A stretch of DNA of 32,003 bases from Chiloscyllium plagiosum (Eukaryota): NCBI RefSeq assembly GCF_004010195.1, contig NC_057758.1:8470775-8502777 (forward strand), read 5' to 3'. This document shows, in pieces, positions 1 to 32,003 of the stretch (position 1 is the first letter of the stretch; every line of letters begins with the position of its first letter). Below the pieces are notes generated by a model. The model made no database searches, was not told where the DNA came from, and was given only the letters and a program-made list of their open reading frames with translations. The translations under genes and the position numbers were made by a program.

Positions 1-3000
1 TCATTCTCTCTCTCACTCACACACTCTCCCTCTCACACTCACTCACTCACACACACTCTCTCACCCACTCGCTCGAGCACACGGGGACATACGCACTCGC
101 ACATTCTGTCTCTCACGCACTCACTCTCTCACTCACGCACACACAAACTCTCACTCTCTCTCTCAAACACACTCTCTATCCTTTTCTCTCTCACAATCAT
201 TCACACTCTCTCTCTCTTGACCCTCTCTCAAACACACACACTCTCACGCACACACACACTCACATTTTCTCTCTCACACACACATTCATATTCTCTCTCC
301 CTCTCTCTCTCACATACACCGATATTCTCTTTCCTTCAGTCTCTCACACACACTCGCACATTGTCTATCTGGATCTCTGACACACACACAACATCACACA
401 TACTGTTTCTCACACTCCCTCTCTTTCTCACTCTCACACGCACACAGCCCACACACACAGCCCACACACGCACTCTCTCTCTCTCACACACATAAACAAT
501 CTCTCTGTCTCACATTCTCTCACACACATTCTCACACTCTCTCTCACATACACACTATCTCATTCTCTCTCTCTTACACTCTCTCTGTCTGACACAGACA
601 CACACTCTAACTCTCTCTCCCTCACACACACTCTCTGTCTCTCACACACACACTCTCTCACACACACAGTCGCATTCTCTCTCTATTTCACACTCTCTCT
701 TTCTGTCTCACATAGACACACACTCTCCCTCTCTCTATCACACACACACAATCTCCCATTCTCTCTCTTTCACACATACACACATATTCTCACTTTCAAA
801 CACACTTTAACATTCTCTCTCTCACACAATCTCACTTTCTCTCTCTTACACATAATCACACATTCTCTCTCTCTCTCTTTCTCACGCCCACACACTCTCA
901 CATTTTCTTTCTCTTTCACATACACAATATCTCATTCTCTTTCCATCTCGTACACGCACACTTTCCCTCTCTCTGTCTCACACAGACACACGTTCTCACT
1001 CTCTGTATCAGGCATACACACACAGTTTCTCTCGTTCACATACACACTCACTCTTTCTCTCTCTCACTCTCACTCATCAATCGCTCACTCACACTCTCCC
1101 TCTCTATCACACACTCTCTCAGACACGCGCACACACTCACACACACTCTCAAATTCTCTCTTCCCTCACACAGTCTCTCTGACATTCGCTTTCTCTCTCA
1201 CACTCACACACTGACGTTTCCTCTCTCTCGCACACACATACAAAATCTCTCTGTCTCACATTTTCTCTCGCACACTCTCACACTCTCTCTCACACACGCA
1301 CTGACTCATTCTCTCTCTATCTCACACTCTCTCTCTGTCTCACACGGTCACACACTCTCACTCTCTCTATCACACACAAACTCTCTCTCTCCCTCGCACA
1401 CACACTCTTTGCCTCTCTCACACACTCTCACTCTCTCACACACACTCTCCCACTCACATACACACTCTCACACACTTGCACACAACGCTCTCACATTCTC
1501 TCTCACACAAACTCTAATATTCTCTCTCTCTCACATACACTCACTCTCTCTCACTCATAATCGCTGTCACGCTCTGTCACACACGTACACTCTCACTCTC
1601 TCTCACAAACACGCTCATTCATTCTCTGTGGCTCTCTCTATCTCGCATACTCTTAAATTCTCTCTCTCCCTCACACATTCTCTCTCTGACATTCTCTTTC
1701 TCTCTCACACACATGAACTGACGTTTCCTCTCTCATACAAACACATACAAAATCTTTCTGCCTTACAATTTTTCTCACACACTCTCACACACTTTCTCAC
1801 ACGCACTGTCTCATTCTCTCTCTATCTCACACTCTGTCCCACACGGACACACGCTCTCACAATCTCTATCACATACAAACTTACAAGCATTCTCTCTCGC
1901 ACACACTTACACACACACGCTCTCACATTCTTTCTCTCACACAAACACACTCACTCTCTATTCCTCACACACGCACACACAGATACACTCATTCTCACTC
2001 TCTATCACACACGCACTCTCTCCCCCTCTCTCACACACACTCTCACATTCTCTCTCACCCTTACACACTTTCTATCATACACTCACACACACACTTTCTC
2101 TCACACCCTCTCTCACGCACACATATACATACACACTCTCATATTCTCTCTCTCACGCACTCACTCTCTCACTCTCACACATTCTCTCTCACATTCTCTC
2201 TCACACACAAACTCTCATATTCTCTCTCTCACACACACGCACTCTCACTCTCTCACACACACTCTCACATTCTCTCACACCCTCACACACTTTCTATCAT
2301 ACACTCACTCATACACACACTTTCTCTCACACTCTCTCTCACGCACACGTATACATACACACTCTCACATTCTCTCTCTCACGCACTCACTCTCTCACTC
2401 ACACACACATTCTCTCTCTCACACACAAACTCTCATATTCTCTCTCTCTCACACACACTCATTCTCAGACTTTCTCACTCACAATCACTATCATGCTCTC
2501 TCACACACATGCACTCTCACTCTCTCTCTCACACACACACGCTCTCTCTCCCTCTCCCTCACACTCACTCAATCACTCGCACAGTATCTCTCTTCCCCTC
2601 CCTCACACACATACGCACTCTCACGTTCTCTCTCTCTCATACACACACTAACTCTCATATTCTCCCTCTCACAAACACACACACTCTCATTTTGTCTCTC
2701 TCTCACACACATACACATACTCTTACATTCTTTCTCCCTCTCTTTCACACACACTCGCACATTCTCTCTCTCGATCTCTATCACACACACACATTCCCTT
2801 TTTCGATCTCTGGCACATGCACACCCACACACACTCTGTCTCTCACACACTCTCTATCACACACACACACACCACACACTCACACGCTCTCTCTCACTCT
2901 CTCTCTCACGCATACACTCTCTCTGTCATACTCTCTCTCTTACAAACACACACTCACTCACTCTCTCACACACAATACACACACTCTCGCTCTATCTATC

Positions 3001-4278
3001 ACAAATACACACACACATTCTCTCTCACACACACAGATACACTCTCACATTCTCTCTCTCACACACACTCTCTCACATTTTCTCTCTCTGCCCCTCTCTC
3101 ACCCTCACAGACTCTCTCTCATGCTCACAGACATACTTTCATATTCTCTCTCTCCAACACACATTCTCTCTCACTCCCTCTTTCTCTTACGCACTCTGTC
3201 TCTGTCTCTCTTTCTCACACACACACCCTCACATTCTCTCTCACACACACATACACACCTAGTCTCACTCTCACTCCCTCTCTCACACACACTCTCTCTC
3301 ACAAACACATACACGCACACACTGTATTTCTCTCTTTCTTTCTGTCTCACGCACACACGCAGTCATTCTCTATCGCTCTCTCTTTCTCGCACGTTCTCAC
3401 ATTCTCTCTCGCACACACACACTCTCATATTCTCTCTCTCTCACACACACTCACATTCTCTCTCTCACTCACACACTCTCCCTCTCACACTCACTCACTC
3501 ACACACACTCTCTCACCCACTCCCTCGAGCACACGGACACATACGCACTCGCACATTCTGTCTCTCACGCACTCACTCTCTCACTCACGCACACACACTG
3601 TCACTCTCTCTCTCAAACACACTTTCTCTCCCTCTCTCTCACAATCACTCACACTCTCTCTTTTGCCCCCTCTATCAAACAAACACACTCTCAAGCACAT
3701 ACACACATTTTCTAACTCTGTCACACATTCATATTCTCTCTCTCACATACATTCACATTCTCTTTTCTTTAATCTCTCACACACACTCGTACATTGTCTA
3801 TCTCGATCTCTCACACACACCGCCACACACTCTGTTTCTCGCACTCTATCTCTTTCTCACTGTCTCGCACACACAGCCTACATACACGCTCTCTCTCTCG
3901 CTTTCTCTCACACACTCTGTCTCTCACTCTCTCTCCCTCACACACGCACTCACTCACTCTCTCTCACACACACAGAACACATACTCTCGCTCGATCACAA
4001 ATACACACAAACTTACTCAAAATCTCTCTCACACACAGACATACACTCTCACATTCTCTCTCTCCCTTGCGCACACACACTTTTATACTCTCTCTCTCAA
4101 ACACACACTCTCTATCACTCCCACTTTCTCTCACGAAATCTGTCTCTGCCTCTCTCACACACCCACGCTCACATTCTCTCTCTCACACACACGCTCACGT
4201 CCTCTCTCACTCTCACACCCACTCTGACACTCTCTCTCACACACATGCACACATACACTCTCTCTCTTTCTTTCTCTC
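1..4278. repeat. Compound CT/CA low-complexity array (cryptic satellite), strongly G-poor on + strand
   Basis: Continuous mosaic of (CT)n, (CA)n and CTCA units up to the gap. Internal duplicated blocks occur, e.g. ctcgagcacacgg at 72 and 3524, and ctgacgtttcc at 1211 and 1718. Confidence 0.97.
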
Positions 4279-4778
4279 NNNNNNNNNNNNNNNNNNNNNN
4301 NNNNNNNNNNNNNNNNNNNNNNNNNNNNNNNNNNNNNNNNNNNNNNNNNNNNNNNNNNNNNNNNNNNNNNNNNNNNNNNNNNNNNNNNNNNNNNNNNNNN
4401 NNNNNNNNNNNNNNNNNNNNNNNNNNNNNNNNNNNNNNNNNNNNNNNNNNNNNNNNNNNNNNNNNNNNNNNNNNNNNNNNNNNNNNNNNNNNNNNNNNNN
4501 NNNNNNNNNNNNNNNNNNNNNNNNNNNNNNNNNNNNNNNNNNNNNNNNNNNNNNNNNNNNNNNNNNNNNNNNNNNNNNNNNNNNNNNNNNNNNNNNNNNN
4601 NNNNNNNNNNNNNNNNNNNNNNNNNNNNNNNNNNNNNNNNNNNNNNNNNNNNNNNNNNNNNNNNNNNNNNNNNNNNNNNNNNNNNNNNNNNNNNNNNNNN
4701 NNNNNNNNNNNNNNNNNNNNNNNNNNNNNNNNNNNNNNNNNNNNNNNNNNNNNNNNNNNNNNNNNNNNNNNNNNNNNN
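4279..4778. other. Assembly gap (500 N)
   Basis: Run of N. Confidence 1.
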
Positions 4779-5091
4779 ATCAAAAGCTTTCTGAAAGTCC
4801 AGGAACACTACATCTACTGGATCTCCCTCGTCCATCTACAGAGTTCCTTCCTCAAACAAATTCAAAAGATTAATCAAGCATGATTTCCCCTTCATAAATC
4901 CATGCTGGCGCTGACTTATCCTGTTATTACTATCCAGATGTTTCGTAATTTCATCCTTTAGAATAGACTCCAGCATCTTTCCCACCACTAAGGTCAGACT
5001 AACTGTTCTATAATGTCCTGCTTTCTCTCTCCCACTTTTCTTAAAAAGTGTTACAACATTAACCACCCTCCAATCCGCAGGAACTGATCCA
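4779..5091 (-). mobile_element. CR1-clade LINE ORF2 reverse transcriptase fragment
   Basis: Minus-strand translations NVVTLFKKSGREKAGHYRTVSLTLVVGKMLESILKD...QHGFMKGKSCLINLL and DEGDPVDVVFLDFQKAFD are CR1 RT motifs. Truncated by the gap. Confidence 0.95.
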
Positions 5092-5300
5092 GCTTTCTCA
5101 CCCGTTTACTTTCCTTCTGCATACCTCACATTATTCTCTCTAACACATTAGTCTTCTGTCTCTGTATCCCTCGTTACGGTTTGCACATCAATTTCTCTAT
5201 TATACCTGCATTTACATTATTTTGTCTCCTCCACCTCTCATGTTAATCTTGCAATCTCCATTACGCTTCTCTGTTGCTTCCTCATCACTCCCTCGACCTT

Positions 5301-5940
5301 TATTTCATGCTCTCTCTCTGTCCGTTTAGCCTCCTTCTGCATGCCTTAACTTTTATCTTGCTGCACTTCGTGCCACAGTGTCAATCTACAAACTCAGCAG
5401 GATGGTAAAGGCTGTGCTCAATCTGTGAAGGGCCGTTCACATCAATTCCTGATGGATGAACCCACCTGTGGCAACTTACTTAATATTAAACCTCCCACTA
5501 TCAGTGTTGACCTTCCCAAAATCACGTGTTGCGAGGAGCAATGGCAGAGCTTATATTATCGCCCAACAAGTTCTGCAGAGTCACAGTGAGATCAATGAAA
5601 CAAAAGTATTTCATGCCTCTCTCTGTCCGTTTAGCCTTCTTCTGCATGTCTTAACTTTTATCTTGCTGCACTTCGTGCCACAGTGTCAATCTACAAACTC
5701 AGCAGGATCTAACTCAGTGGCAGGCCTGTCTGGAAATGGTAAAGGCTGTGCTCAATCTGTGAAGGGCCGTTCACATCAATTCCTGATGGATGAACCCACC
5801 TGTGGCAACTTACTTAATATTAAATCTCCCACTATCAGTGTAGACCTTCCCAAAATCACGTGTTGCGAGGAGCAACGGCAGAGCTTATATTATCGCCCAA
5901 CAAGTTCTGCAGAGTCACAGTGAGATCAATGAAACAAAAG
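5301..5940 (+). repeat. Tandem duplication, units 5301-5606 and 5607-5940
   Basis: Both units start tatttcatgc and end gatcaatgaaacaaaag. They are near identical, but unit 1 lacks 29 nt (ctaactcagtggcaggcctgtctggaaat). Confidence 0.97.
5667..5923 (+). other. Candidate terminal coding exon of unknown family, copy A (84 codons to TGA, acceptor AG degenerate)
   Basis: HFVPQCQSTNSAGS...SHQFLMDEPTCGNLL...SSAESQ* aligns in frame and to the same stop with the minus-strand frame at 9404-9654. A long pyrimidine tract precedes it. Confidence 0.3.
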
Positions 5941-6249
5941 AGCCATGTTCAGCGGGCTTGGAGATCTCTGTAGTTAATAATCACTCAAGTTCTGAGTTCT
6001 TGACTTGTTAAAGTGACAGTCCACAGTGAGCAGACAATGTTGCATCACCATCGAAAGTATACCACGGTGGGGTGAGATCAAATACAATGATAAGAAATGT
6101 TCAGCTCCCACCCACCAACCAACCTCCGCACATGCACGCACAACCCAACCACCACCTCCACCCCACCCTCCGGCTAGCCAGCCGTTCCGGATTGACGTCC
6201 CACCTGTGGCTTTTGAATTCCATTAGCAGTGTCAGGAATTAACACATGG

Positions 6250-6930
6250 CTGAGTGAAATACATACATCTGTCTGCATCAGTGGTGCTATGATAAAGATT
6301 GGCAGGAGCGTTTCCAGACGTAACCATCACCAACAACCTGTCCAGAGCTTCCCCATCGATGTTATAGTGAAGAATGCACAAGAATGTCTCTACGTTCTCA
6401 GAGGGCTATGTAAGTTCCTTATGTACAACAAAAAGCTTCGTTTTTGTTTCTCGGTGCACTATGCAATGTATCCTGTCTGTGTGTATCTCAACTTGGTACG
6501 GTAACTGCTGTGCCCAATACTGCAAGAAATACCATAGAGTCATGAACATGCCCAGTTTATCAACACATTAGTCGACAATCCATTGACTCGCTCTATGCTT
6601 CCCGCTTCTTCGGCAAAGCAGCCGACAGAATCAATGATCCCACACCTCACCATGATTATAATATTTTTCATCCTTTTCTGACGGGCAGAAGATTTAAATG
6701 TTTTAATTCACATATCAACAGATTCAAGAACAACGTTTCCCACTCTGATCACAGCCTTTGAAACAAACCTGCAAAATTCTATTGTTTCTTTTCTATTTGT
6801 TGCGTGCCTGAAGCTGGAACAATGTAGTCTGCACTCTGTTATTTTACGATAATGTACTTTTATGGTAATACTTGCCGAGATAGCAAATCTTTTTCATTTT
6901 ATATCAGTACATGTGACAATACTGCTTAAT
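6250..6930 (+). mobile_element. Decayed Rex1/Babar-type LINE, 3' part
   Basis: Frameshifted translation HTSVCISGA...IDVIVKNAQECLYVLRGLCKF...RCTMQCILSVCISTWYGNCCAQYCKKYHRV resembles the Rex1/Babar C-terminus (VKKAQQRLYFLRRL...RCTIESILxxCITxWYGNC). Confidence 0.85.
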
Positions 6931-6989
6931 CTACCGTTAATACGTGCCCAGTGTGTATCAAGATACTCTGAATTTCTAAATGATTTACT

Positions 6990-7780
6990 GATACCTCTTT
7001 ATAATAGATTCCAGCAAGTTACCAATGGCAGACGTTAAGCTAAATTTAGTTGTGTTATACTTGTCTCAAAATCTTTTTTGATAAGGTTGCTTGCAGTTAT
7101 CCAATTTTAAGGACGAACTGATGATAACGCCCATGAGACCATACGACAGAGGAGCACAAATTCAGGTCATTCAATCCTGGCTGGTACATTTCTCAAAAAA
7201 TAAATCCCTCGCCATCTCATGGTAATCTTAGGTTCCCTTCATAATGAGGAGCCTATCCCTCTTAGTCCAAAATGAATGTAATTACTTCGGCTACATAACC
7301 TTCTGTTGCAATGAATTCCATCGATTGGCCACTCTCTTGCTGAAGATTGCTTTTACTTATCTCTGTTCTTAAAGTTCGAAATGAGGCTCGAGGGGCTGAA
7401 TTGCCTGAATCTGTTGCATTCTAGCAAGAGTATATAGTTTAAACACAGGAAAGCATGTTCGCGATGACCAGAGGAGTTCAAGACCAAGGGGGTCTCAGTC
7501 TAAGGCATTCAGGACAGGCCATTTAGGACGGAGGTAGGGGAACAGCGGAGACTGTGGAATTATCTGCCACTTGAAGCAGTCAAGGCGAAAAATTTGAATA
7601 TTGTTTTTTTCGAAGTAATTATATATGGCTTCTGGAATGAAATGGATCTAAGGGTGTGGTGAGAAAACAGTAACAAGGGATAGTGTTGAATGATCACCAA
7701 AGGTCACATTGAATGTTATAGCAGGCTCGAATTCTTGAATGATCTATCCCTGCTCATAGTTTCTGTTTTTCACTATGAAA
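6990..7780. mobile_element. Mosaic of decayed CR1 fragments and 3' tails on both strands
   Basis: Minus-strand tail at about 7135 (gaccatacgacagaggagcac). Plus-strand tails aggctcgaggggctgaattgcct (about 7384) and gcaggctcga...ctgctcatagtttctg (about 7720-7765). Confidence 0.65.
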
Positions 7781-8094
7781 CACATGGTGCTGTGATTCAT
7801 TCCAGAATAGATTCATAACTTCGTTTGAAGTCGACATAATGACAACCAGCAGTTAATCTGTTCCATGAAGGAGGTAAATATTTTACATCATGAAAGCATG
7901 AAGCAATCTGTTGGCAACTCAGGTGAAACTTTCAGAAATTTACAAATAAAAACTTTCACGGTATGTGGGCATCGCTGACTTCGTGCATCGTTTTATGTTT
8001 GCTATGGAATAAAGAAAAACATTCTGCTGCGTCTCGTTTGTATATCAGTAATGAGGGGGTTCACACTTGCACGATTGTCAACAAGACACGTAGG

Positions 8095-8390
8095 AGCGAG
8101 AATAAAAATAAAGAGATACAATTCTGAGGCTTTATAAGGCTCTGGTCTGACCAGACCACATTTTGATCATTGTGAGCAAGTTTGGGCCTATATCGCAGGA
8201 AGGATGTGCTGATCCGCGAGCGTGACGTGGGTCTCTAACATCTCGAGGGATGAAGGGTGACCAAATTGAAACTTACAGAATACTGAATGGCCTCGATGGA
8301 GTGGATGAGGCGAGATGTTCCATTTCGCAGGAGAGACCAGGATCAGAGAGCACAGGCTTAGGTAAAGATTGCGATGGTTGACGGAGTTCC
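8095..8390 (+). mobile_element. Decayed CR1 ORF2 C-terminal fragment
   Basis: ctgaggctttataaggctctggtc...ccacattttgatcattgtgagcaagtttgggcc corresponds to LRLYKALV.RPHLEYCxQFWAP. It is followed by an IETYRILNGLD-like segment. Confidence 0.75.
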
Positions 8391-8789
8391 AGCCCAACTG
8401 CTTGTTCTGTGATGCTGGGGCGTTCGTGGGTCAATGAAATGCGGGGTGTTTCATTTAAAAGACTACGTATCAATGAATAATGGACACACACAAACCCGTG
8501 CCAGGAGACGAGTCCTGCTGCCATTGCCCGGAATTTCCCCTGTGCCATGAAGAAACTAGAAGAGCTCCAATGGTAATCGTTGCTGTTTGCAAAGGTAGCA
8601 TTTTGAGAGGGTTAAAGAGCGATCTATAAATTGCAGCAGAGACCTTTTGGCACATTGTTCTTCCAAAACAAAATACGAACTCCAGCAGACCCCCTTTCCA
8701 ACTTGACCGAGAGCCATTAATTGTCAGACGTTTCAAGTGACTTATCCAAGTACACTTTCCAGTAGTGAATCTTCCCTTCTCAATTAACA

Positions 8790-9070
8790 ACTCAGGCAGG
8801 GCATTTCAGACTCACCACCAGCCGGTGGGTGAAAACATTTTTTTGGACTCCCCTCTGAACCCCTGCCTTTCACTTTAAAATGGTGGTTTCTTGCTATTCA
8901 GCGTTCGGATAAGGAGCCCAGCTGTTTTCTCGTCTTGTCCATGCCGCTCATGTATCTCGCTCTTATCCTCCCTCGACCTTCTCTGCTTCTCATAAAACAA
9001 GCCGAGCTTCTCCAGCACTCTGCATTGCAGAACCTGATCAAGCTGGAAAATGTTCACTCCTGAGCCCTCT
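8790..9070 (-). mobile_element. Decayed CR1 ORF2 3' fragment
   Basis: Minus translation LEKLGLFYEKQRRSRED resembles the CR1 LxxLGLFSLExRRLRGDL motif. Confidence 0.65.
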
Positions 9071-9239
9071 CTCTGGTGAAATCATACCCTGCTAGTATTA
9101 AATTGAAAAGAACAAGTCTAAATCCCAAGATGGCACTTGAATCCAGAGTGGCTAGACTGGGGTGAGGGGAGTGTTGGAGGTAGGCTATTAACACTTCTTT
9201 TCAGGGTACTTGAGTTCAACGTACTGAGCCTAACCATTG

Positions 9240-9930
9240 CACAGTGTTGCACATTCGCCTGTTCTCTCTTTGAGAACTGTCACTTTAACAAGTCGAGAAC
9301 TCGCAGAGAAGTCCGGATGGTGCTGCTCCTTGCCGAGAATTTCAGTGATTATTCACTACAGAGTCTCCGGGCCGCTGAATGTCACTCCTGTTTTTCATCG
9401 ATCTCACTGGGATATCGCGGAAGTTTGTAGGTCCGAATGAAAGCTGTGCTCTTGCTCCTTGCAACGTGGCATTTTGAGGAGGCGAACACTGATAGGCTGA
9501 AAGGTAAGTAAATAGCCACAGGTAGATGCATCCATCAGTAACTGATGTGAAGGATTCTGGACAAAGTGAAGACAGCATTCATCATTTCCAGCCAGGCCTG
9601 CTGCTGATTTCGAGCCTGCTGGAATTGGAGATTCACACGGCATCGGAAAATGAACTACAGAGAAAAGTTAAGACATCCAGAAGAAGGGGTAAAAGGCAGA
9701 GTGAGAGTGCGAAATAAAGGCAGAGTGAGTAATGAGGGAGTAAGATAGTAGGGTAATGGAGAATGAGAAATGAAGAGGAGAGATGGGAAGCGACAAGAAA
9801 TGCAATAAATAAAAGTATTTCCAAAAAAATGGAGATGGAGACAGGAATGAAGGACAAAGAGACAGAGGGTAAAGGTGTTAGAGAGAGAGAGTAATGAGGA
9901 ATGCAGAATGAAGATAACGGGATTAGAAAA
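9240..9930 (-). repeat. Right arm of an old inverted duplication (partner 5092-6050)
   Basis: Its reverse complement aligns with 5092-6050, including the pyrimidine tract (tttctaatcccgttatcttcattctgcattcctca vs tttctcacccgtttactttccttctgcatacctca). Confidence 0.9.
9404..9654 (-). CDS. Candidate phase-1 terminal coding exon of unknown family, copy B (82 codons to TGA)
   Basis: Canonical acceptor cttttctctgtag| at 9655 after about 600 nt of pyrimidine-rich sequence. Frame HFPMPCESPIPAGSKSAAGLAGN...SHQLLMDASTCGYLL...TSAISQ* is conserved with copy A. Confidence 0.35.
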
Positions 9931-10270
9931 TAGAGAAGGGAGATTAATGAAGAGCTGAGAGAATAAAGAGATAGGCATTGCAGTATAATGCACAACAGAG
10001 AGAGAATTGTGCTTGACAAAGATAGTAAAGAGGTACGGAGAAAGAAGGCGAAGAGGTTTGAGAGATTAAAACAACAGAATAAGAGAAAGGGAGACCTACA
10101 TGGAAAAATAATTGAAAAAGTTGATATTGAGTAATGATTGTGAGAGTGTTTGAATAAAAACATCAGAGAAAGAATAAAACAGGTATTGAATGATGATGGC
10201 GAGGGAACAAAAATAGCTGCGGTCGGGATAGTAATTGAGACTGAGATAGATGGGGGGAGAGAGATAAGAA
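9655..10270. repeat. Purine-rich (GA) low-complexity tract on +, i.e. a polypyrimidine tract on -
   Basis: Strong A/G bias throughout. Confidence 0.85.
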
Positions 10271-10504
10271 TTAAATGTGAACATCACAGATCGAGAGAGA
10301 CGACCTTATGTGCTCTGTTTGTTGATTGTATATTCTCTTCCATCGTCAGGGTCCTTGCTTCTTACAGTAATGTCTGAATGCTTGTATAAAGTTAGCAGTT
10401 TCACAGTCATTTCTCGTGATTGGAGCAAGACAGAGTCGGGGAGGGCAGAAGGACCTCCAACCTGCAGGTCCGTCTGAAGCCACAGCACCATTGTATTCAC
10501 TCAC

Positions 10505-10560
10505 CCTTCATTAATTTTCATTCGCAGGATATTGGTCTGCAATATTGACCGTTCTGCCAT
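10505..10560 (-). other. Candidate first exon with ATG(s) and consensus splice donor GG|GTGAGT
   Basis: On -: aaaaATGGcagaa...ttaATGAAGG|GTGAGT, with the donor at 10504-10499. It would pair with the acceptor at 9655 (850-nt intron). Confidence 0.3.
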
Positions 10561-10774
10561 TTTTTGCCGATCCCCAGTTGTACCCTTTGAGGAGAGTGGG
10601 GCTGAACTCCTTCTCAGACTGCCTCAGTCCGTGTACCGCAGACAGACCAGCAATAAAATGGCAGGGAGGCAGCCAAGGCATTTTGTCCGAGTGACAGCGA
10701 ATGAACAATCGATATATTTCACGCACACTTCATCCGATTCATTCATGGGATTTGGAAGGTGTTGTCAGACAGCA

Positions 10775-11500
10775 GTTATTGCTCTCCCTCGTTGGCCCCG
10801 TGCGAAAGTGGCATTGAGCGGCTTTCTTGAAATAATGCAGTCAATGTGCTCAGGGTAGACCAGTAATTCCATCAGGGAAGAACTTCCACAATTTTGTTTG
10901 AGCGGCACTGAATAAATGGTGATATATTTCAAGACAATATGGTGAGTGGCTTGGAGGGGAAAGTGCAGGGGTTAGTGCTAAAATCCATCTGCTGCTCTTG
11001 TGCTACTCGATGGAAGGGGTTTCGAAGGTACTAACTAAGGACTTTTGGTAAATGTTTACAGTGCGTCTTGTAGATGGTACACACTGCTCCTAAGCCTTCG
11101 TGGTCGAGAGAGTGAATGTGTGTAGATCTTTTGCGAATCAAGTGGGCTTTATTGTCATGGATCCAGTCGATATTTTTAGTGTAATTGCAGCTGCAAAAAT
11201 CCAGACAGGTGGGTTTGACACTATTCACTTGTGCCTTGTCGATGATGAACCAGTTTTTTTGGGGAGTGGAGGTGGAGATGAGGAGCTGGAGGGTAAGGAG
11301 CTGAGAAAGGCGCAGCAGAATTCCTAGACTCTGAATCTCTCTTTAGCCAGTATATTGTGATAGCTGCTCCAACTTAGTTTCTGGATCAATTTGAAGCAGC
11401 TGAATGTAAATAGTTGACGGCTCGGGGGCGGGGGGAGGGGGTGTGCAGGGTGTACAATAATGATGCTTCGATTCAACATCAAGCGGCAACGTTTAGATTA
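10775..11500 (-). mobile_element. Decayed non-LTR retrotransposon 3' end (CR1/L2 group, distinct from the other CR1 copies)
   Basis: Minus translation IHDNKAHLIRKRSTHIHSLDH...AVCTIYKTHCKHLPKVL resembles LINE C-terminal IQDKAARLI...IHSLHHRR.VAAVCTIYKMHC. Confidence 0.7.
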
Positions 11501-11793
11501 GCTCGTATTGTTAACTTTTTGGACGTTGAAGGTTGGCAGGGAGTAATTCAGTTATGGTAACACCATTGAAGTTCAAGACAATTACTGACGGGGTGAGAAG
11601 GAAGCCTACTCGGAAGATTATGAGTGGGCATAAGTGGTGAAGGCATGAAAGGATAACCTGAAAGGTAATTGGATTGATGAAAACCTCTGTATGAGTGAGT
11701 GAGGGTGGGGGAGTTGAGCTGATGGACAGTGTCAGCAGTGCGTCAGCATCACCTCCTACTTTTGTTACCAAGAAAAGACAATGAAGCTACATG

Positions 11794-11832
11794 TTTCCAC
11801 TTTATTCCGAATCTGCAAAGCATTTGTGCACG

Positions 11833-11878
<46 letters not shown>

Positions 11879-12158
11879 TTCCTCAGGTGCTATTTGTTAT
11901 TGTTAATGTTGATATATATGCCTATCTGTCCCTATGTGCATGTGTTGTGTAAGTTTGCATTTGTGGCTGTTTCTGTGAGCCTTTTCCACTTTATCTCGAA
12001 TCTGCAAAGCATTTGTGCACGATCTGTGTGTGTGTGTGTGTGTGTGTGTGATTCCTTAGGTGCTATTTGTTATTGTTAATGTTGATATATATGCCGATCT
12101 GTCCCTATGTGCATGTGTTGTGTAAGTTTGCGTATGTGGCTGTTTCTGTGAGCCTTCC
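11794..12158 (+). repeat. Tandem duplication (11794-11982, 11983-about 12158), each unit with a TG microsatellite
   Basis: Units share gaatctgcaaagcatttgtgcacga...gattcct.aggtgctatttgttattgttaatgttg. (TG)21 at 11836-11877 and (TG)13 at 12025-12050. Confidence 0.97.
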
Positions 12159-12384
12159 ATTTCATGTGCGTGTCTGGGGCATGTGGTGTGTTGTGTGTGT
12201 GTGTGTGCGTGTTTCAGCCTCTGTGTTAATCTTTCGGTGTGCATTTATGATTCCATGCATGTGTCTTTGTCTGTGTTTTTGTGTTCCTCTATGTCAGTGA
12301 TTCTGTCTCTGTGTATTGGTGCATTCCTGTGTATATCGATGATTTTGTTTTATTGTTCACCTCCATTCAATGGGTTTTCTGTAA

Positions 12385-15641: not shown

Positions 15642-15786
15642 ATGGATTTCAATGATTTCTATCTAAACATTCTTGAAGTATCCTCCGGCGTATCTTCATG
15701 GATTAATGGGGACTTCTACATCCAAACTAGAATTCAGGATTTTGAGAGGATATACTACCCAATACTTGCTGCTGTCAGCGTCCCCC
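15642..15786 (+). CDS. GPCR exon 1 (N-terminus and first half of TM1)
   Basis: gtcATGG Kozak context; MDFNDF...FERIYYPILAAVSVP; donor GTAAGT at 15787. Confidence 0.85.
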
Positions 15787-16399: not shown

Positions 16400-18188
16400 T
16401 ATGTGGTGCTGGAAAATATAGGTGTTCTGGTAGCATGCGAAGTGGGGGAGAGGTGAAGTTTTGAGCATCAGCCGTTCATCACGAATGAGGGGGTGGCCCA
16501 AGGAGCCTGAGAGATAAATGAGTGATGCTGATGAAGGTAACTGAGAATGCCATTCTTAGCTGGAGGTGCGCAATGGTGGAGATTGTTCAGAAAGAAAGTT
16601 GGAGCTAATTTGGTGGGAAGAAAAATCGAGAGTGAGGACAGTTCAATAGGGCGGTTGGGTTTGTTAAAGTGTTCTGCAACTGGGAGATGGAATTATTTCG
16701 TCCATGTCTCCTTGAGATGCTCTCAGAAACGTTCTGCGAGTAACCGTCCTGTCACCCCAATGTCGAGTATGCCACACCAAAACCAACGGACACAACAGTT
16801 GATGTGTGTGGAAGCAAAGCTAAATCTCTGTGCAAATGCGAAAGGATCAGTGAGAACCATGGACGGCGGTGAGTTTGAAGGTGTAGGCACATGCTTTCCT
16901 CTTCCTTTGGTGTCAAGGAAAGGTGCCAGGTGTGGATGATACCGTGGTGGATGCTGTGGCCCTCACAATGGAGTCTTTGTGGTTATCATCTCTGTGGAAT
17001 GCTGGTAGCGGTGGAAAGTGAAATGCATCCCAGGTGGCGGACATGGCTGAAGATGTTATGTTGAATGTGGAGATTGGTGCGATGAAAGTTGAGGAGCGGA
17101 GAGTTCTGTCCTCGATCCGATTGAAGAGGTAGGGTTCAAAGGCAGAGGTGAGCGAAATGGAAAAGATGCACTGGAGAACATCGTCGACCCGCGGGAGGGA
17201 ATTTGCAGTCATTGAAGAATTTCCCATCCGGGAATTTCTTTGGTGGAATTCGTCCTCCTGGGACAAGATGCAGTAGATAAATTGGAAGGAATGGATAGCG
17301 TTTTTACAAATGCCAAGATGGGACGAGATGTCGTCCAGGTCGTTGTGGGAGGCAGTGAGCTTGACGTCGAAGTCTGTTTTGCATTCAACGGAAATGAAGA
17401 TAGTGAGGTCCAGGAAGGGCCGAGACGGTCCACTTGAATTTGAAGTCAGGGTAAAAGGTACTGGTGAAGTTTATGAACTGTTCATGCTGCTCGCAGGAGC
17501 ATGAGCTGGCGCCGATCGAGTCATTGATGAAGCGCAGTAAATGGAGGGGATTGGTGTCAGTTTAGCTGCGGAAGTTGGACTGTTCTATGTACCAGAGAAC
17601 GTGGCATGAACTGCTGGGGCCGATGCGTATGCCCATGGTTACCCCTTTTCCCTCGAGGAAGTGGGAGAATTGAAAGGAGATTTTTTTTTGAGGGTGAGGT
17701 CCAGTTCAACCAATCAGACGAACGTTTCAGTGGAAGTATGCGATTTGGATCTTCGCTTGACGACGAAATAGAGGGCTTGAAGGCCTTCGTCTTGAGAGAA
17801 GAATGTCTGAAAATGTAGTTTGCGAGCCAGAGAAACGGAGGCGGTGGCATCCCGAACATACATGGGGCGATCCTAGATCAAGCTGGACAGAATGATGCCA
17901 AGGTATGCTGGGGTATGTTCTTGGGGGAAGGAGCTGGGTGAGACATTAGGTCAACCAGGGCAGTCAGGTTTGTGAATTTTGGGTCAGAGGTAGAACCGGG
18001 CAGTGCGTTGTCCCCAGACTATGAGTTTTAAGCCTGACACATGATAGACTGATGTTGGCAGGTGAGCTCGTGACTGAGTGGGCAGTCGGAAAGAGGTGTC
18101 CATGAGTTGCTGCCTGTTTTCAGCAACGTGGAGATTGGTGCGCCAATTTATCATTGTGCCCGCTTTGTCTGCTGGCTTGATTGGTAGC
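16400..18188 (-). mobile_element. Decayed Penelope-like element (RT plus GIY-YIG endonuclease plus tail) in the GPCR intron
   Basis: Minus translations IKPADKAG (about 18145-18182), RTARFYL*PKIHKPDCPG (about 17955-18008), PPLPAFHRD...PGTFP and INCCVRWFWCGILDIGVTGRLLAERF (GIY-YIG-like). The tail ends ttttccagcaccaca at about 16402. Confidence 0.9.
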
Positions 18189-18189
18189 C

Positions 18190-19470
18190 AGATGCACCAG
18201 CATCTTTCTCAGCTGTGCCTGCCTCCTCCTCAAGTAGGGCAACAGTGTGTTTTCCGCAGCTGCACCGGCAACATTCCCAGCCATTTCCTCCGTATCAACG
18301 CCATATCGTGCTCCCACCAGGAGTTTGAAATGTTCATGAATTTTATTGACATGTTGTTCGCTGACCACAAATTCATCTCGGCCACATCCCTCTCTTTACT
18401 GTACCTCTTCGTCTTCGTTTCCATTGACAGACTCAACACAAAGCAATTTCCCCCACCATTTGTCGAAATCTCCCTCCAGTACATCTCTTCCTCTTTTGCG
18501 CATCTGTCCTTGAAGCGCACCCATGCAATCACAGGAAGCACAGAGCTCCCCTGGACTCACCTTCTTTCCCAACAACCAGCAAATACAACGCGTCATCCTC
18601 GACCATTTCGACTACCTTCAAACAGACGACGTCACTAGAAATATATTTCTCGCCCCACCCGGACTTGTGCGCCACAGGGGCCATTCACTCCAGGACTCCT
18701 TCTTTCGGTCCAAGACCCCCACCAACCGACCATCCTCTCCCAGCATCATGCCTTGCCACCGGACAAAGTACAAAACCTCCTCCCACACCTCCATACTCAC
18801 CACAGTCCAAGGTCCCGAAGGATCCTTCCACAACCAACTGAAATTTAACTTGACTTCCACACATATCATACACTGTGTCCGTTGCTGTCGATGTGCTCTC
18901 CTCCAACTGAAGCAGACAGAATGCTTACTTGCAGAATGTTTCAGAGATCATCTCTGAGACACATGCACTAAAAACCCTATTGCCCTGTATCCAAACACTT
19001 TAAATCCCACTCCAACTCCGCCGAGGCCATGCACATCCTGGGCCTCCTCCACACCAAACATCTCGCCACCCAACACGTGGGCGAATACTGCCGCATGGTC
19101 CACCTTTGGTCCCTGCAACCATACAGGATAAAGGTATACTTCACGCGTTTCATTAATCGCCATCATCCCTCTTTCCAATTTATTCCAGAGCCAACATTCT
19201 GACTCGACACCAAACTCTGAACTGTCCAAACTGTCCATCTTGCTTCCTACCAATTCCGTTCAACCTCCTTTCTGACATATCACCATAATACCTCATATCC
19301 ATCTACCTATCCCATCCCCCGCTACTTTCCCCACAGTGCATCCCCTTCCATTGATCTCTCAGCCCATTGGGCTACTCCCTCATTGCTGATGAAGAGTTTA
19401 TGCTCGAAATGTCGACTCTCCTGCTCCTCAGATGCTTCCAGACTGCCTGTGCATCTCCAACACCACACGT
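18190..19470 (+). mobile_element. Second decayed Penelope-like element, inverted relative to the first
   Basis: QQCVFRSCTGNIPSHFLR..SCSHQEFEMFMNF (RT) and IQRVILDHFDYLQTD...QGPEGSFH...TSTHIIHCVRCCRCALL (GIY-YIG). Tail ctgatgaagag...ccaacaccacac. Confidence 0.9.
19383..19416 (+). ncRNA. Minimal type I hammerhead ribozyme motif in a PLE tail (probably weakened)
   Basis: CTGATGA(19386-92) A GAGT-TTAT-GCTC GAAA T GTC: core boxes intact and stem II pairs. The helix III palindrome ACGT is mutated to ATGT. Confidence 0.6.
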
Positions 19471-19681
19471 TCCATCACTTTCTCCTGCAACTATGTATAC
19501 AATAACTAGCTACGTCAGAGTAGAGAATGCGAATTTGGAATGTACGATTTGAGGATTATGGCTTCTGAATGGAAAACACAGTCATGACTGTGCACCACTT
19601 ATGTATGAAGTGAAAATTGAATATTGCAGTTTTTTCCCTCATCAATCATTAAGTGTTATATCGTAGTTTCCTTTTTCACAG

Positions 19682-20587
19682 TTAATATAGTGACGATTGT
19701 GATCCTGTTCCGTGGGAAGTGTGGACTCTCCAGATGTGTCACTCTCTATCTGATGGCCATGGCAGTCGCAGATTTATTGGTGGTCATCCTTGACCTGATA
19801 TTGAGACATATTCCAATTGTTTATCCAGAAGTCTTCACTTTCCTGAAGGATATAGATGTGTGCAACATTCATGCTGTCCTGCTTTATGCAGCATCCGAAT
19901 GCTCTGTCTGGTTCACAGTCACATTCACCTTCGACCGCTTGGTAGCCATTCGTTGTCACACGTTCAAAACTAAATATTGTAATGAGAAAACAGCGGCGGT
20001 GGCTCTCGGAACAGTGACTGGACTGAGCTGTTTAAATAATATCAGCTGGTATTTTATGTATAACCGTAATTATGGTTTATCAAATCATCCTATGTTTTGT
20101 GGTATAGAATTGAGTGATGACAACTTAGAGTTATAGGGCCATAATTGAAATTGTTCACTACATTCTCTCACCCTGTCTCCCATTCGTTCTGATTCTGCAG
20201 CTCAACATTTTCACCGTCAGACATATTGTAGTGAGCAGCAGAGCCCGCAGTAGACTCCGGGCTCACAAAAATGGGGAGTGTCCCAGAGACACGGAGATGG
20301 AGAACCGAAGAAAATCAATTGTTCTTCTGTTTATGATTTCAGGCAACTTCATCCTGCTGCGGGCAGTGTTTGCCGTGTATGCAATGCTTGAACGAATGGA
20401 TAATCTGGGCTATTTGATTTATGTGCCTGTGTATGTCCAAGAATTAGGATTTATTCTACAGCTCTTGAGTTGCTGCACAAACACTGCAATCTACGTCGTG
20501 ACACAGAATAGGTTCAGAGGACAATTCAAAAAATTGGTGATATATCCCTTCAGTCTGATCACTCATATAAGTAAAAGGCAAAATTAG
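19682..20587 (+). CDS. GPCR exon 2 (TM1 end to C-terminus), frameshifted at 20135
   Basis: ORFs 19624-20136 and 20231-20587 become one frame on deleting A20135: ...NLELWAIIEIVHYILSPCLPFVLILQLNIFTVRHIVVSSRARSRLR... Confidence 0.9.
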
Positions 20588-24049: not shown

Positions 24050-24360
24050 TGTGCCTTTGCAATGTTCAGGTTGACAAAGGTATGCACCAACTAATGGAAT
24101 TAATGATTTGAACAGTTCGTTGGGTGTTGTTGATCATACACAGAAGAGAACATCGTACTTTGCCCTCAATATATGCTTCCCAAGGTGTGCTGATTACATC
24201 TAACCTGTGCCTTTGCAATGTTCAGGTTGACAAAGGTATGCACCAACTAATGGAATTAATGATTTGAACAGTTCGTTGGGTGTTGTTGACATACACAGAA
24301 GAGAACATCGTACTTTGCCCTCAATATATGCTTCCCAAAGTGTGCTGATTACATCTAACC
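24050..24360 (+). repeat. Near-perfect tandem duplication (24050-24205, 24206-24360)
   Basis: Units run tgtgcctttgcaatg...gattacatctaacc. I see only one 1-nt indel and one substitution. Confidence 0.98.
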
Positions 24361-25845: not shown

Positions 25846-26399
25846 ATAATCACTTACCACCACATGTGAACTTGGCCTTGCTCCATTTCGCCTTTTCATT
25901 TGGTGTTCTCCCGTAGAATTCCGTTGCAATTTCTTTTGTGTGTTTATTCTTGATTGACCGCCTAGAGCGTGGATTGGTCTCAATTCTTTTACTCAAGGGT
26001 ATTCATGCCCATCTGAATGAATTTCCACCATTCACCAATAGGTCAATCAGGCCAGATCACGCTGAGTAATCGGGCCGAAAAAGGCATTGACATGTTGATG
26101 GCAGGGCGGCCCTTAGATGTCCATGACTGCAGGTGCTGGGAGCATGTAGAACCCTCCATTTCAGAGTGTAATGCGATCCTGTATCTGTTACACATCTCAA
26201 CGTTTCCGTTCGCCCTGACGATGACATTCCAACCAAATTCGAGTGTATGTGATAGATTTTCAACTGCCGGGTTCATTGCTAACTGGCTGTTGGAAGTTGC
26301 AGCCTGTCTGGATGATGCAGCATGCGTGATAGCACTGTTATTTTTGTTAAGGCTCACCTTAGGTACCCAGAATTCTTTCCTATTTGTTCATTTTTCTTG

Positions 26400-28170
26400 A
26401 AATCCATCATGTTTTTGAGAGCCCTTCCAGGCTAAGGACCTCCTTTTGGTCCTGTTGTGATGGATCACAACATAAAAGGCAGTGACTGCAGGACCATGCC
26501 GATTCAAGCTAAGCCCAACATATACTGGAGCAACGAAACTGATGCAGATAGCATATGAGCAAACGGCACTTTCTAGAGATTGATCAAATGCAAAAAAAGG
26601 TAAACTTTGCTATCGAAGTACGCCATGCTCACATTCCTTCTCGTCCTTAACTTGACAGGCGCATTTAGCTGAATGGTCTTGATGTTCTAAGTGTGCGCCT
26701 GCACTGCTTATCTGTGAACCCTGACAGTGAATTCTGGTTCTGTGAGGTCGAGGCCATACAGGTATTCGTCTCCCTTCAGGTGCCTGTCATGACAAAGTGC
26801 GAGGTTTATTCTGGAGATCAGACGATGGTGATGCACACCATCATGAGGCCAAACGGAAGTATTGTATCCCAGCTTTTCTTATTCTGCTGCACCGTCTTCC
26901 TAATCATCCCTTTTTGGTTGTGCTTCATGCTTTCCACGATCCCACTGAATTGTTTAGTATACAATGTGGAATTTCTGCTTGATACCAAGCATAGTTATCA
27001 TAATTTGCATGACTCAGCATTTGAAATGGATTCATCGATCTGACTTGTTACTGCGAGGTAGACCCCATCCTGTAAATACCATCTCTGTTATGATATATGC
27101 TGTTGCTTTGGTTGTATTTAAATAACAAGGGAAGCATCGACCCATTTTGTCACAGTGCCTATGATGATCAGAATGCAGATAAGTCCGTTGCCAAACGTTG
27201 GCAGGGGACCTGTGAAGTGAATTTCAAGTCTTGTCCGGTGCCCTTCCACTTCTTAGTTCTCCCCTTGGCTTGTAATTGTCTGTATTGTTTTAGGTGGAGA
27301 CAAAACAGTTCCCTTTATTATGTGCTGCATCTCTATGCAACTCGGGTCACTAACACAATGATTTTAATCGTTTTGTAGTGGCCTTTCTTCCCTGGTGCAC
27401 GTGCCTGTAATGATATTTATGTATAATTTGGTTCCTGTCTTCAGTCGAGGCGACATGCAAACATGATTTTAGAAATAACCTGTCACTTACGTGTAGGGAA
27501 CGCTTCCACCTGGCAGGGGAATCTGGGTAAACTCTTCCCATAATTTGCTTTTGAGGAATCATCACGGCGTTGTGCATGTCTAATGGCCTCTATGTTTTAC
27601 TGACTTAGACTGACAGCATTGGCTGCTTACCTATGGGTGCCCATCAGGAAACTCCTACATTAGCCCATCTTTTGGCGCATTTGTCTGCTCTGCGTTTACA
27701 TTATGGGGATCACCTGTGGTTAGTTCCATTTTTGATTATGCTGAACTTAACCTACTGTGAGGCCTGCAGTTCTTCAGTGAGGGGGGCTGATGATAGTTAT
27801 TTCACATCAGCGGAAACAAAACATTGAACTTCCCAAACTGGTAAGCATTCAGTCAAGCTTTTGCATACTTACGTGCTGTCCGAACATATATCTGCGCGTG
27901 AATGTAACAGAAAACGGTGGGCGAAGATACAGGCTGATCGATTGGACCAAACGAGGCATTGGTATCCATGGTTGATGGCAGGATGATCCTTCAATATCCA
28001 TTACTGCAGGTGCTCGGTGCACGTAGCCTCTTCCAAATACCGCTGTGAGGCGCCCTTTTGACTGGGATACACCTCGATGTTTGCGATCGAGCTGATTTAT
28101 TTCAACCCCAAATTCAGATTTATATTTTAGGTCTTCAATTGCCATGCTGATTGCAAACTTTCTGTTGGAC
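26400..28170 (-). mobile_element. Heavily decayed endogenous retrovirus-like pol: RNase H plus integrase
   Basis: Manual minus translation. RNase H: MDIEGSS, ADICSDST*VCKSLTECLPVWEVQCFVSADVK*LSSAPL...RADKCAK. Integrase: YHYRHVHQGRKAT...LC**PELHRD (HHCC region), LEIHFTGPLP...VTKWVDA...WGLPRSNKSD...LGIKQKFHIVY, SGIVE, SWDTILPFGLM. Confidence 0.85.
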
Positions 28171-31677: not shown

Positions 31678-32003
31678 CCAACAGAAAGTTTGCAATCAGC
31701 ATGGAAATTAAAGACCTAAAATAAAAATCTGAATTTGTGGTTGAAATGAATCAGCTCGATCACAAACATCGAGGTGTATCCCAGTCAAAGTGGCGCCTCT
31801 CAGCGTTATTTGGAAGAGGCAACATGCACCGAGCACTTGCAGTAATGGATATAGAAGGATAATCCTGCCATCAACATGGATATAAATGCCTCGTTTGGTC
31901 CAATCGATCAGCCTGTATCTTCGCCCACCGTGTTCTGTTTCATTCACGCGCAGATATATGTTGGGACTGCACGTAAGTATGCAAAAGCTTGACTGAATGC
32001 TTA
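31678..32003 (+). mobile_element. Inverted second copy of the ERV-like pol fossil (RNase H region), running off the window end
   Basis: Roughly 90% identical by eye to the reverse complement of 27842-28168. Confidence 0.92.

Follow-up and report, generated by a model that had tools for sequence, protein, structure and literature searches.

A shared open frame in an old inverted duplicate of the bamboo shark genome: relic, chance or last exon

Introduction

Does an open frame that survives in two diverged, inverted copies of a DNA segment mark a gene? The question is raised by a window of 32,003 nucleotides (nt) from Chiloscyllium plagiosum (NC_057758.1), the whole stretch of DNA analysed here, in which two inverted arms, A and B, keep one frame open for 82–84 codons to a common TGA. 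The original prediction, made from the sequence alone, held that this frame may be the last exon of a lineage-specific gene duplicated tail to tail. Its description of the DNA holds in part: the frame is open and frameshifts are few, and the block appears to be multi-copy. Its interpretation as an exon found no clear counterpart in constraint, in a protein relative, in an acceptor or in sense RNA over copy B. The reading we favour, with moderate confidence, is that the arms are an old inverted duplicate near a GPR139-like pseudogene, carrying a relic or chance frame and no working exon today.

The inverted arms and a tandem duplicate

The inverted arms are real. Self-BLAST of the whole window aligned 5094–5600 with 9929–9393 (67.2% identity, E = 8.6e-39) and 5617–5993 with 9705–9336 (72.5%, E = 4.2e-49), an overall identity of 67–73% and a divergence of ~30%. 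The homology extends beyond the arms first described, inward to ~6310 and 9010 (score 92 versus a maximum of 40 in 30 shuffles); outward, arm A stops at 5094 beside a reverse-transcriptase fragment of a long interspersed nuclear element (LINE), and the tract of arm B continues to ~10290. The LINE fragment, which we take to be of CR1/L2 type, adjoins the outer side of arm A and has probably truncated it. The best-conserved block of the pair lies 3' of the frame (27 nt, 96% identity, 5994–6020 versus 9302–9276); its motif has 0 matches in metagenome and viral contigs. No third, unrelated arm copy occurs in the 32-kb window, and an Rfam search returned 0 matches.

The self-BLAST match comes in two pieces because arm A holds a tandem duplicate, unnoticed before, made of units A1 (5301–5606) and A2 (5607–5940). 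The two are separated by 5 substitutions and a 1-nt difference, and A1 has a deletion of 29 nt. A1 is the unit contiguous with the long pyrimidine tract, and it is frameshifted, reaching a TGA after 9 codons from the homologous start; A2 itself includes only ~50 nt of tract upstream of the frame. The tandem arrangement may be an assembly artefact.

The window as a whole contains near-identical tandem duplications of 155–330 nt at 5301–5940, 11794–12215 and 24050–24360, together with three N gaps of 500–570 nt, and the duplications are possibly short-read assembly artefacts in multi-copy DNA.

Conservation of the shared frame

The aligned frames of A2 (84 codons) and B (82 codons) stop at a common TGA, and the count of 39 identical residues in 82, with four cysteines in common, was reproduced. 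The accompanying statement that the sole indel is in-frame is correct for A2 against B, which differ by one 6-nt indel, and fails for A1, where the 29-nt deletion shifts the frame. As the original prediction had cautioned, the flanks are conserved as well as the frame or better: identity is 70% (176/251) in the frame versus 73%, 76% and 80% in the flanks, a difference short of significance (Fisher p = 0.13). Over the same columns, each of the six frames gives 34–38 identical codon pairs, so that an amino-acid identity of 39/82 is about what 70% nucleotide identity is expected to produce.

Of the 82 aligned codons, 59 are identical at the first position, 59 at the second and 54 at the third, and the ratio of non-synonymous to synonymous substitution rates (dN/dS) of the frame pair is 0.76 (95% bootstrap interval 0.43–1.40); across the six frames dN/dS ranges from 0.75 to 1.14, and over the first 55–59 codons, near the tract, it is ~1 in every frame. 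Purifying selection at the protein level is not demonstrated, since the interval spans 1. Neutral evolution of shuffled arm sequence was simulated without indels, or with indels at the overall or the flank rate (n = 3000 per setting); in the setting without indels, 170 of 3000 simulations yielded a run of 82 or more codons open in phase in both copies.

Protein and domain searches

The original prediction recognised no protein family, and searches of collections that include the proteins of nine chondrichthyan species likewise gave no relative. At E ≤ 0.001, a profile of the two peptides matched none of 1.84 billion representative proteins, and none of 269 longer candidates matched the frame peptides at E ≤ 10. 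A control fragment of the neighbouring receptor (19621–20586) matches 996 proteins, of which the top 120, nearly all named ‘probable G-protein coupled receptor 139’, belong to nine species of sharks and rays; chondrichthyan proteomes are thus covered by the protein search. In the ESM Atlas the best scores were 0.89 and 0.84, at the level of shuffled proteins, with recognition at ~1050–1100, and the best match in the PDB (E = 0.96) was at the level of shuffled sequences. The frame profile gave 54 pattern matches in viral contigs, 0 of them confirmed. A six-frame Pfam search of 5100–11790, with stops as X, reached a best E of 0.26 and found no transposase, integrase or reverse-transcriptase domain. 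A match of B residues 3–63 to positions 285–347 of DUF4529 (PF15032; E = 0.054, 13 bits versus a cut-off of 27) was set aside as chance: frame A does not match, and the full-library profile search found nothing.

Copies of the block in organism A

Other copies of the block were viewed through reads of a second sample, organism A, some contigs of which are at least 99% identical to the window, suggesting the same or a very close species. Of 24 runs listed, four of organism A (X1, X5, X9 and X19) were mapped on 5600–11790 at a likeness of at least 88%, with older copies of the arm, below 88%, outside the mapping; six rows of organisms B, C and D, which contain 5–7% of the sequence words, were left aside. 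Run X5 is taken for DNA by guess, and X1, whose depth follows that of X5 (Spearman 0.72), behaves like DNA; the run type of X9 (RNA or otherwise) is not on record; X19 is poly(A) single-cell RNA, of which ~2% was read, yielding 70 mapped reads, mostly on repeats. The calls reported below are those among 40 of 544 substitutions, 12 of 59 indels, 15 of 39 joints and 24 of 438 loose ends, and depths are summed across contigs, giving an order of magnitude for organism A and not a copy number.

All 30 bins of the block are covered in X5, and the 24 bins without high-copy repeats have depths of 194–698 (median 446): 194–279 over arm A, 337–684 over arm B and 271–698 over the non-repeat spacer, versus 2000–10000 over dispersed repeats. 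Single-locus contigs of dispersed repeats have a median depth of ~10 (12 joint rows, leaving out one row of 106.7 within the block), and single contigs on the block reach 95–131. The longest piece listed on the block in X5 is 248 nt; the longest record of the run is 38 kb. These depths suggest that the whole block, arms and spacer, is multi-copy, at roughly 10–30 copies. Because the spacer is as deep as the arms, the block appears to have been amplified as a unit, and the arm is no separate dispersed repeat at a likeness of at least 88%; by the same token, multi-copy status is not specific to the frame.

Two further features of the block were seen in X5. A contig of depth 107 skips 69 nt at 6738–6808, a deletion or replacement common to many block copies, and the high-copy dispersed repeats (depth 2000–10000) lie at 8084–8497, 10775–11188, 7256–7462 and 11396–11602 and are LINE-type by appearance.

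The copies vary within the frame. Some B-type copies reach the length of A through a 6-nt insertion at 9493, and about a third of the depth carries an additional base at 9423 that shifts the frame by +1 (X1 24/76, X5 130/403). The major B-type copies carry one extra base at 9651 and one fewer at 9663. Among the 15 of 39 joints and 12 of 59 indels listed, there is no ‘go back’ joint and no 29-nt deletion corresponding to the A1/A2 tandem.

Acceptor, splicing and transcription

Copy B was originally credited with a strong acceptor. The motif exists, TTTTCTCTGTAG ending at 9655 in B with no AG at the aligned place in A, and as a splice site it was not borne out. No listed joint (15 of 39) or loose end (24 of 438) marks the proposed junction at 9654, and contigs cross it unspliced, including the X9 contigs 9552–9801 and 9600–9710; an X1 loose end at 9652 is a diverged copy of the adjacent frame. 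The TAG ending at 9655 is in phase 0 in those organism A copies that have the extra base at 9651, its phase thus differing between the window and organism A. A CAG at 5683/9638 is common to A and the B-type copies of organism A and is lost in the B of the window: at 9639, organism A reads CAG versus the window's CCG in all listed depth (X1 302.7/302.7, X9 49.1/49.1, X5 414.6/414.6).

If an exon exists, its acceptor would probably be this CAG, 17–18 nt downstream of the TAG, with the exon starting at TGT (5684/9637) in phase 0; the conserved CTTAAC whose A lies 29–30 nt upstream of it is branch-point-like, and the TAG is 13 nt from that A. Were this so, it is the B of the window, not A, that would be the damaged copy, with the CAG lost and a TAG 17 nt upstream out of phase. 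The model was formed after the variants had been seen, and its CAG is a candidate: among the same 15 of 39 joints and 24 of 438 loose ends, none marks a splice at 9637 or 5684. The original prediction had held that random frameshifts in other copies, or a lack of spliced reads, would speak against it, and in part they do, given the +1 at 9423, the deletion in A1 and the fact that no spliced reads were seen. The conserved TGA could also be taken to belong to a GTGAG donor, a reading that was rejected: the next common AG lies ~52 nt on, which is too short for a usual vertebrate intron.

RNA over copy B runs the wrong way for the frame. About 4 X19 reads cover 9326–10153; the first mate maps to the minus strand in every one, which makes them plus-strand RNA, antisense to frame B; three X19 reads carry poly(A) directly behind 9814. 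Cleavage usually falls 10–30 nt after a polyadenylation hexamer, and these tails begin 1–5 nt after the hexamers in A-rich DNA; the poly(A) is therefore most likely the product of oligo-dT internal priming on plus-strand RNA. In such single-cell data, intronic peaks lie mostly near A-rich tracts, according to one study (PMC7341584).

Run X9 is enriched at 9533–9946 and at the homologous 5600–5806, with an X9/X5 ratio of 0.04–0.09 versus 0–0.011 in the other non-repeat bins. Its depth is highest over the tract (60) and falls to 0 just past the stops, a profile that, if X9 is RNA, is unlike that of the proposed last exon. The peak stands at the border of tract and frame in both arms; when scaled to DNA depth it is raised several-fold to tenfold or more, and it could be a pile-up of 3' ends or a chromatin peak. 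On the frame strand, no AATAAA or ATTAAA occurs within the common 3' homology of either arm; the first on the coding strand lies 1.3 kb downstream in A (none until 7199) and 2.7 kb downstream in B (none until 6707).

Features of the block and its neighbourhood

The coordinates of the block are collected in Table 1.

Table 1. Features of the inverted arms and their surroundings (window positions)
Feature	Position	Strand	Remarks
LINE reverse-transcriptase fragment	4779–5105	-	Pfam RVT_1, E = 1.3e-6 on open reading frame 4836–5105
Arm A pyrimidine-rich tract, homologous to B 9929–9720	5094–5300	+	73%, 249 columns (5094–5345), 6 gaps
Copy A1, first tandem unit	5301–5606	+	29-nt deletion breaks the frame (TGA 9 codons from CAG at 5378)
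Copy A2, second tandem unit	5607–5940	+	frame intact
Branch-point-like CTTAAC (A at 5654) and CCACAG ending at 5683, candidate phase-0 acceptor	5650–5683	+	29 nt after branch A
Open frame of A2	5669–5923	+	TGA 5921–5923; 79 codons from TGT 5684
Arm A 3' homology	5924–6310	+	includes the 5994–6020 block
Spacer between arms	6311–9009		no Pfam family in six frames; X5 depth equal to that of arms
Arm B 3' homology	9010–9403	-	33-nt insertion relative to A
Open frame of B	9404–9652	-	TGA 9406–9404; 77 codons from TGT 9637
CCG in window, CAG in organism A	9638–9640	-	aligns with CCACAG of A; 30 nt after branch-like A at 9668
Originally proposed acceptor, TAG ending at 9655	9655–9672	-	13 nt after branch-like A; phase 1 in window
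Arm B pyrimidine tract (purine-rich on plus strand)	9673–10290	-	
Two overlapping AATAAA and A-rich run	9804–9830	+	poly(A) of three reads begins 1–5 nt after hexamers

Several other open reading frames (ORFs) were tried and rejected. The plus-strand ORF 9526–9714 (63 codons), under the X9 peak, drew attention in that three window-specific disruptions (9524, 5693 and 5664) are absent from the organism A copies; it was rejected on a dN/dS of 1.07, a stop at 9559 in all listed depth of organism A, 0 matches among 17 candidates at E ≤ 10 and none in Pfam. The plus-strand ORF 9122–9430, behind an acceptor-like site near 9204, is out of register with its counterpart in A save for a short stretch and has no Pfam match. 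The hydrophobic ORF 9633–10283 (216 codons), in the tract of arm B, is probably a low-complexity by-product, and the coiled-coil-like frames of the purine strand were likewise set aside as low complexity; on that strand, stops are common to both arms.

On the plus strand, 6–11 kb from the block, lies a two-exon pseudogene of a GPR139-like shark G-protein-coupled receptor (GPCR), 15684–15785 and 19682–20587, with 67–70% identity to whale shark P0003. Exon 1 ends at GTAAGT (15787), exon 2 follows a pyrimidine tract and an AG (19681), and a frameshift occurs near 20133–20138. The receptor family is very large in sharks (996 matches). The arms found no match with any of the top 120 receptor proteins (lowest E over the arms 0.4), and the arms show no 7tm_1 domain. 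A literature search, with most subscription journals outside its reach, brought up nothing on GPR139-like arrays in sharks or on the locus itself.

Repeats surround both. Within the receptor intron, 16402–16938 and 18731–19467 form an inverted pair (~68%) that we take to be Penelope-type retroelement debris; Pfam gave no supporting domain on seven ORFs. A second inverted pair, 27842–28168 and 31678–32003, is 93% identical and has a third relative at 26054–26410 (~66%), all LINE-like by appearance. Positions 1–4278 are a degenerate (CT/CA)n low-complexity array of 4.3 kb with a C-rich skew of ~-0.8.

Discussion

We favour a history in which a module of ~1.2–1.3 kb (pyrimidine tract, 250-nt frame and ~380 nt of 3' sequence) would have been duplicated in inverted orientation long ago, and the whole block, arms and spacer, would later have been amplified in a multi-copy segment among GPR139-like receptor genes and LINE debris. 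The frame would then be either the relic of a once-coding 3' exon near neutrality or a one-in-a-thousand chance frame, and low-level plus-strand transcription over the block would have been caught by oligo-dT priming on the A-rich tract. Openness of the frame leaves a coding origin possible and proves none. With 148 genome windows, several repeat pairs in each and a p of ~0.001 per pair, about one chance case may be expected.

Several observations weigh against this reading, and most of them speak for its chief rival, in which the frame would be a live phase-0 last exon of 77–79 codons, with acceptor CAG|TGT, in a fast-evolving, lineage-specific, tail-to-tail multi-copy family. The frame has few indels (1 in 251 columns versus 12 in 421, p = 0.02), and the shared run of at least 82 codons arises in 4 of 3000 neutral simulations with indels at the overall rate and in 2 of 3000 at the flank rate, a joint neutral p of ~0.001. 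Five other repeat pairs of the window keep 30–45 shared codons, over shorter alignments (237–352 versus 423 columns); they include dead coding retroelement pieces at similar divergence, and the frame of the arms is the longest of the seven pairs tested. The 10 frame variants listed for organism A comprise 5 synonymous and 5 non-synonymous changes and no stop (p = 0.06). The 6-nt indel is in-frame and is filled by the insertion at 9493 in some B-type copies. The B-type copies of organism A restore, in phase with A's, the CAG that all listed depth shows at 9638–9640, and in the major ones the TAG lies 18 nt upstream of it, in phase. About 2 X19 reads over 5807–6220, near the end of frame A, are plus-strand and thus sense to it. 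With ~2% of X19 read, the kind of X9 and X1 unrecorded, and variants, joints and loose ends listed in part, splicing is possible; and since no bamboo-shark protein stands among the best 120 of the 996 control matches, the nearest proteomes may be missing.

A live exon would imply that A1 and B are damaged here, that intact copies lie elsewhere in the array and that expression occurs in other tissues; its product would be a short Ser/Cys-rich C-terminal tail, probably unstructured, under relaxed or diversifying selection. We consider it unlikely. No listed joint or loose end falls at 5684, 9637 or 9654, X9 depth lies on the tract side and the reads over B are antisense. The dN/dS interval includes 1, shark proteomes hold no relative, and no polyadenylation hexamer is near, distant though a long 3' untranslated region would allow it to be. 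No candidate for an upstream exon was found: both arms are bordered by gaps and repeats, beside A stand the LINE fragment, a gap and the 4.3 kb simple repeat, and Pfam is blank over 5100–11790. The acceptor, moreover, was selected once the variants were known. The corresponding family, unannotated in the shark lineage, with tens of copies tail to tail near GPR139-like arrays and four conserved cysteines, evolving at a near-neutral rate yet without stops or frameshifts, is about as doubtful.

Two explanations that dispense with a host gene fare worse. The inverted pair around a spacer might be what remains of an old transposable element, as terminal inverted repeats, as decayed long terminal repeats (LTRs) or as a portion of one of its ORFs, with the frame kept open while the element was active. 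The AATAAA and the poly(A) reads, both on the purine-rich strand, would agree with the 3' end of an LTR, retroelement debris is abundant in the window, and a dN/dS slightly below 1 with an open frame could fit old subfamilies; against this, X5 depth over the arms does not exceed that over the spacer, in contrast to the dispersed repeats in the block, the arms have diverged by 30% although the termini of one element start identical, and six frames, Rfam and the 32 kb gave no domain, no match and no third copy. We hold this to be improbable. Rated slightly lower still, and very improbable, is a conserved non-coding feature on the other strand or on neither, whether the 3' end of a long plus-strand RNA or a regulatory element at the border of tract and frame. 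The poly(A) loose end behind 9814 (3 reads) beside two AATAAA, the X9 enrichment at both borders and the position of the best-conserved block outside the frame would favour it; yet the poly(A) starts where internal priming is likelier than cleavage, the record does not say what kind of run X9 is, an AATAAA is missing from the aligned position in arm A (a minus-strand hexamer at 5304 is the only one listed there), and the plus-strand ORF 9526–9714 was rejected as coding.

If the favoured reading is true, the locus is an ordinary duplicated and amplified segment with a relic or lucky frame, and it teaches a caution: an amino-acid identity of 48% is what neutral evolution is expected to give where 70% of the nucleotides are identical. 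If instead the exon is live, a hidden, multi-copy, fast-evolving family of cartilaginous fishes is missing from current proteomes, and its many natural copies would allow birth-and-death evolution to be tested directly. Such families are often tied to immunity, chemosensation or reproduction.

Known systems offer three comparisons, the first two with general classes. Orphan gene families with fast terminal exons share with the arms an open frame without homologues, a dN/dS of ~1, multi-copy status and a possible branch point and acceptor; here, unlike there, no spliced or clearly sense transcript, upstream exon, polyadenylation signal or significant purifying selection was found. Inverted paralogous segments in segmental duplications and tandem arrays resemble the locus in that an old inverted pair has been amplified with its spacer into many copies of 90–95% identity, some of them frameshifted, beside an expanded receptor family; they differ in that the locus holds an 82-codon in-phase frame, rare under neutral models, and has been assigned no parent gene. 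From the shark GPR139 arrays the block is set apart by arms that match no receptor and a frame that is not a GPCR exon, whereas a pseudogene member of those arrays lies 6–11 kb away, and the block may have been amplified along with them.

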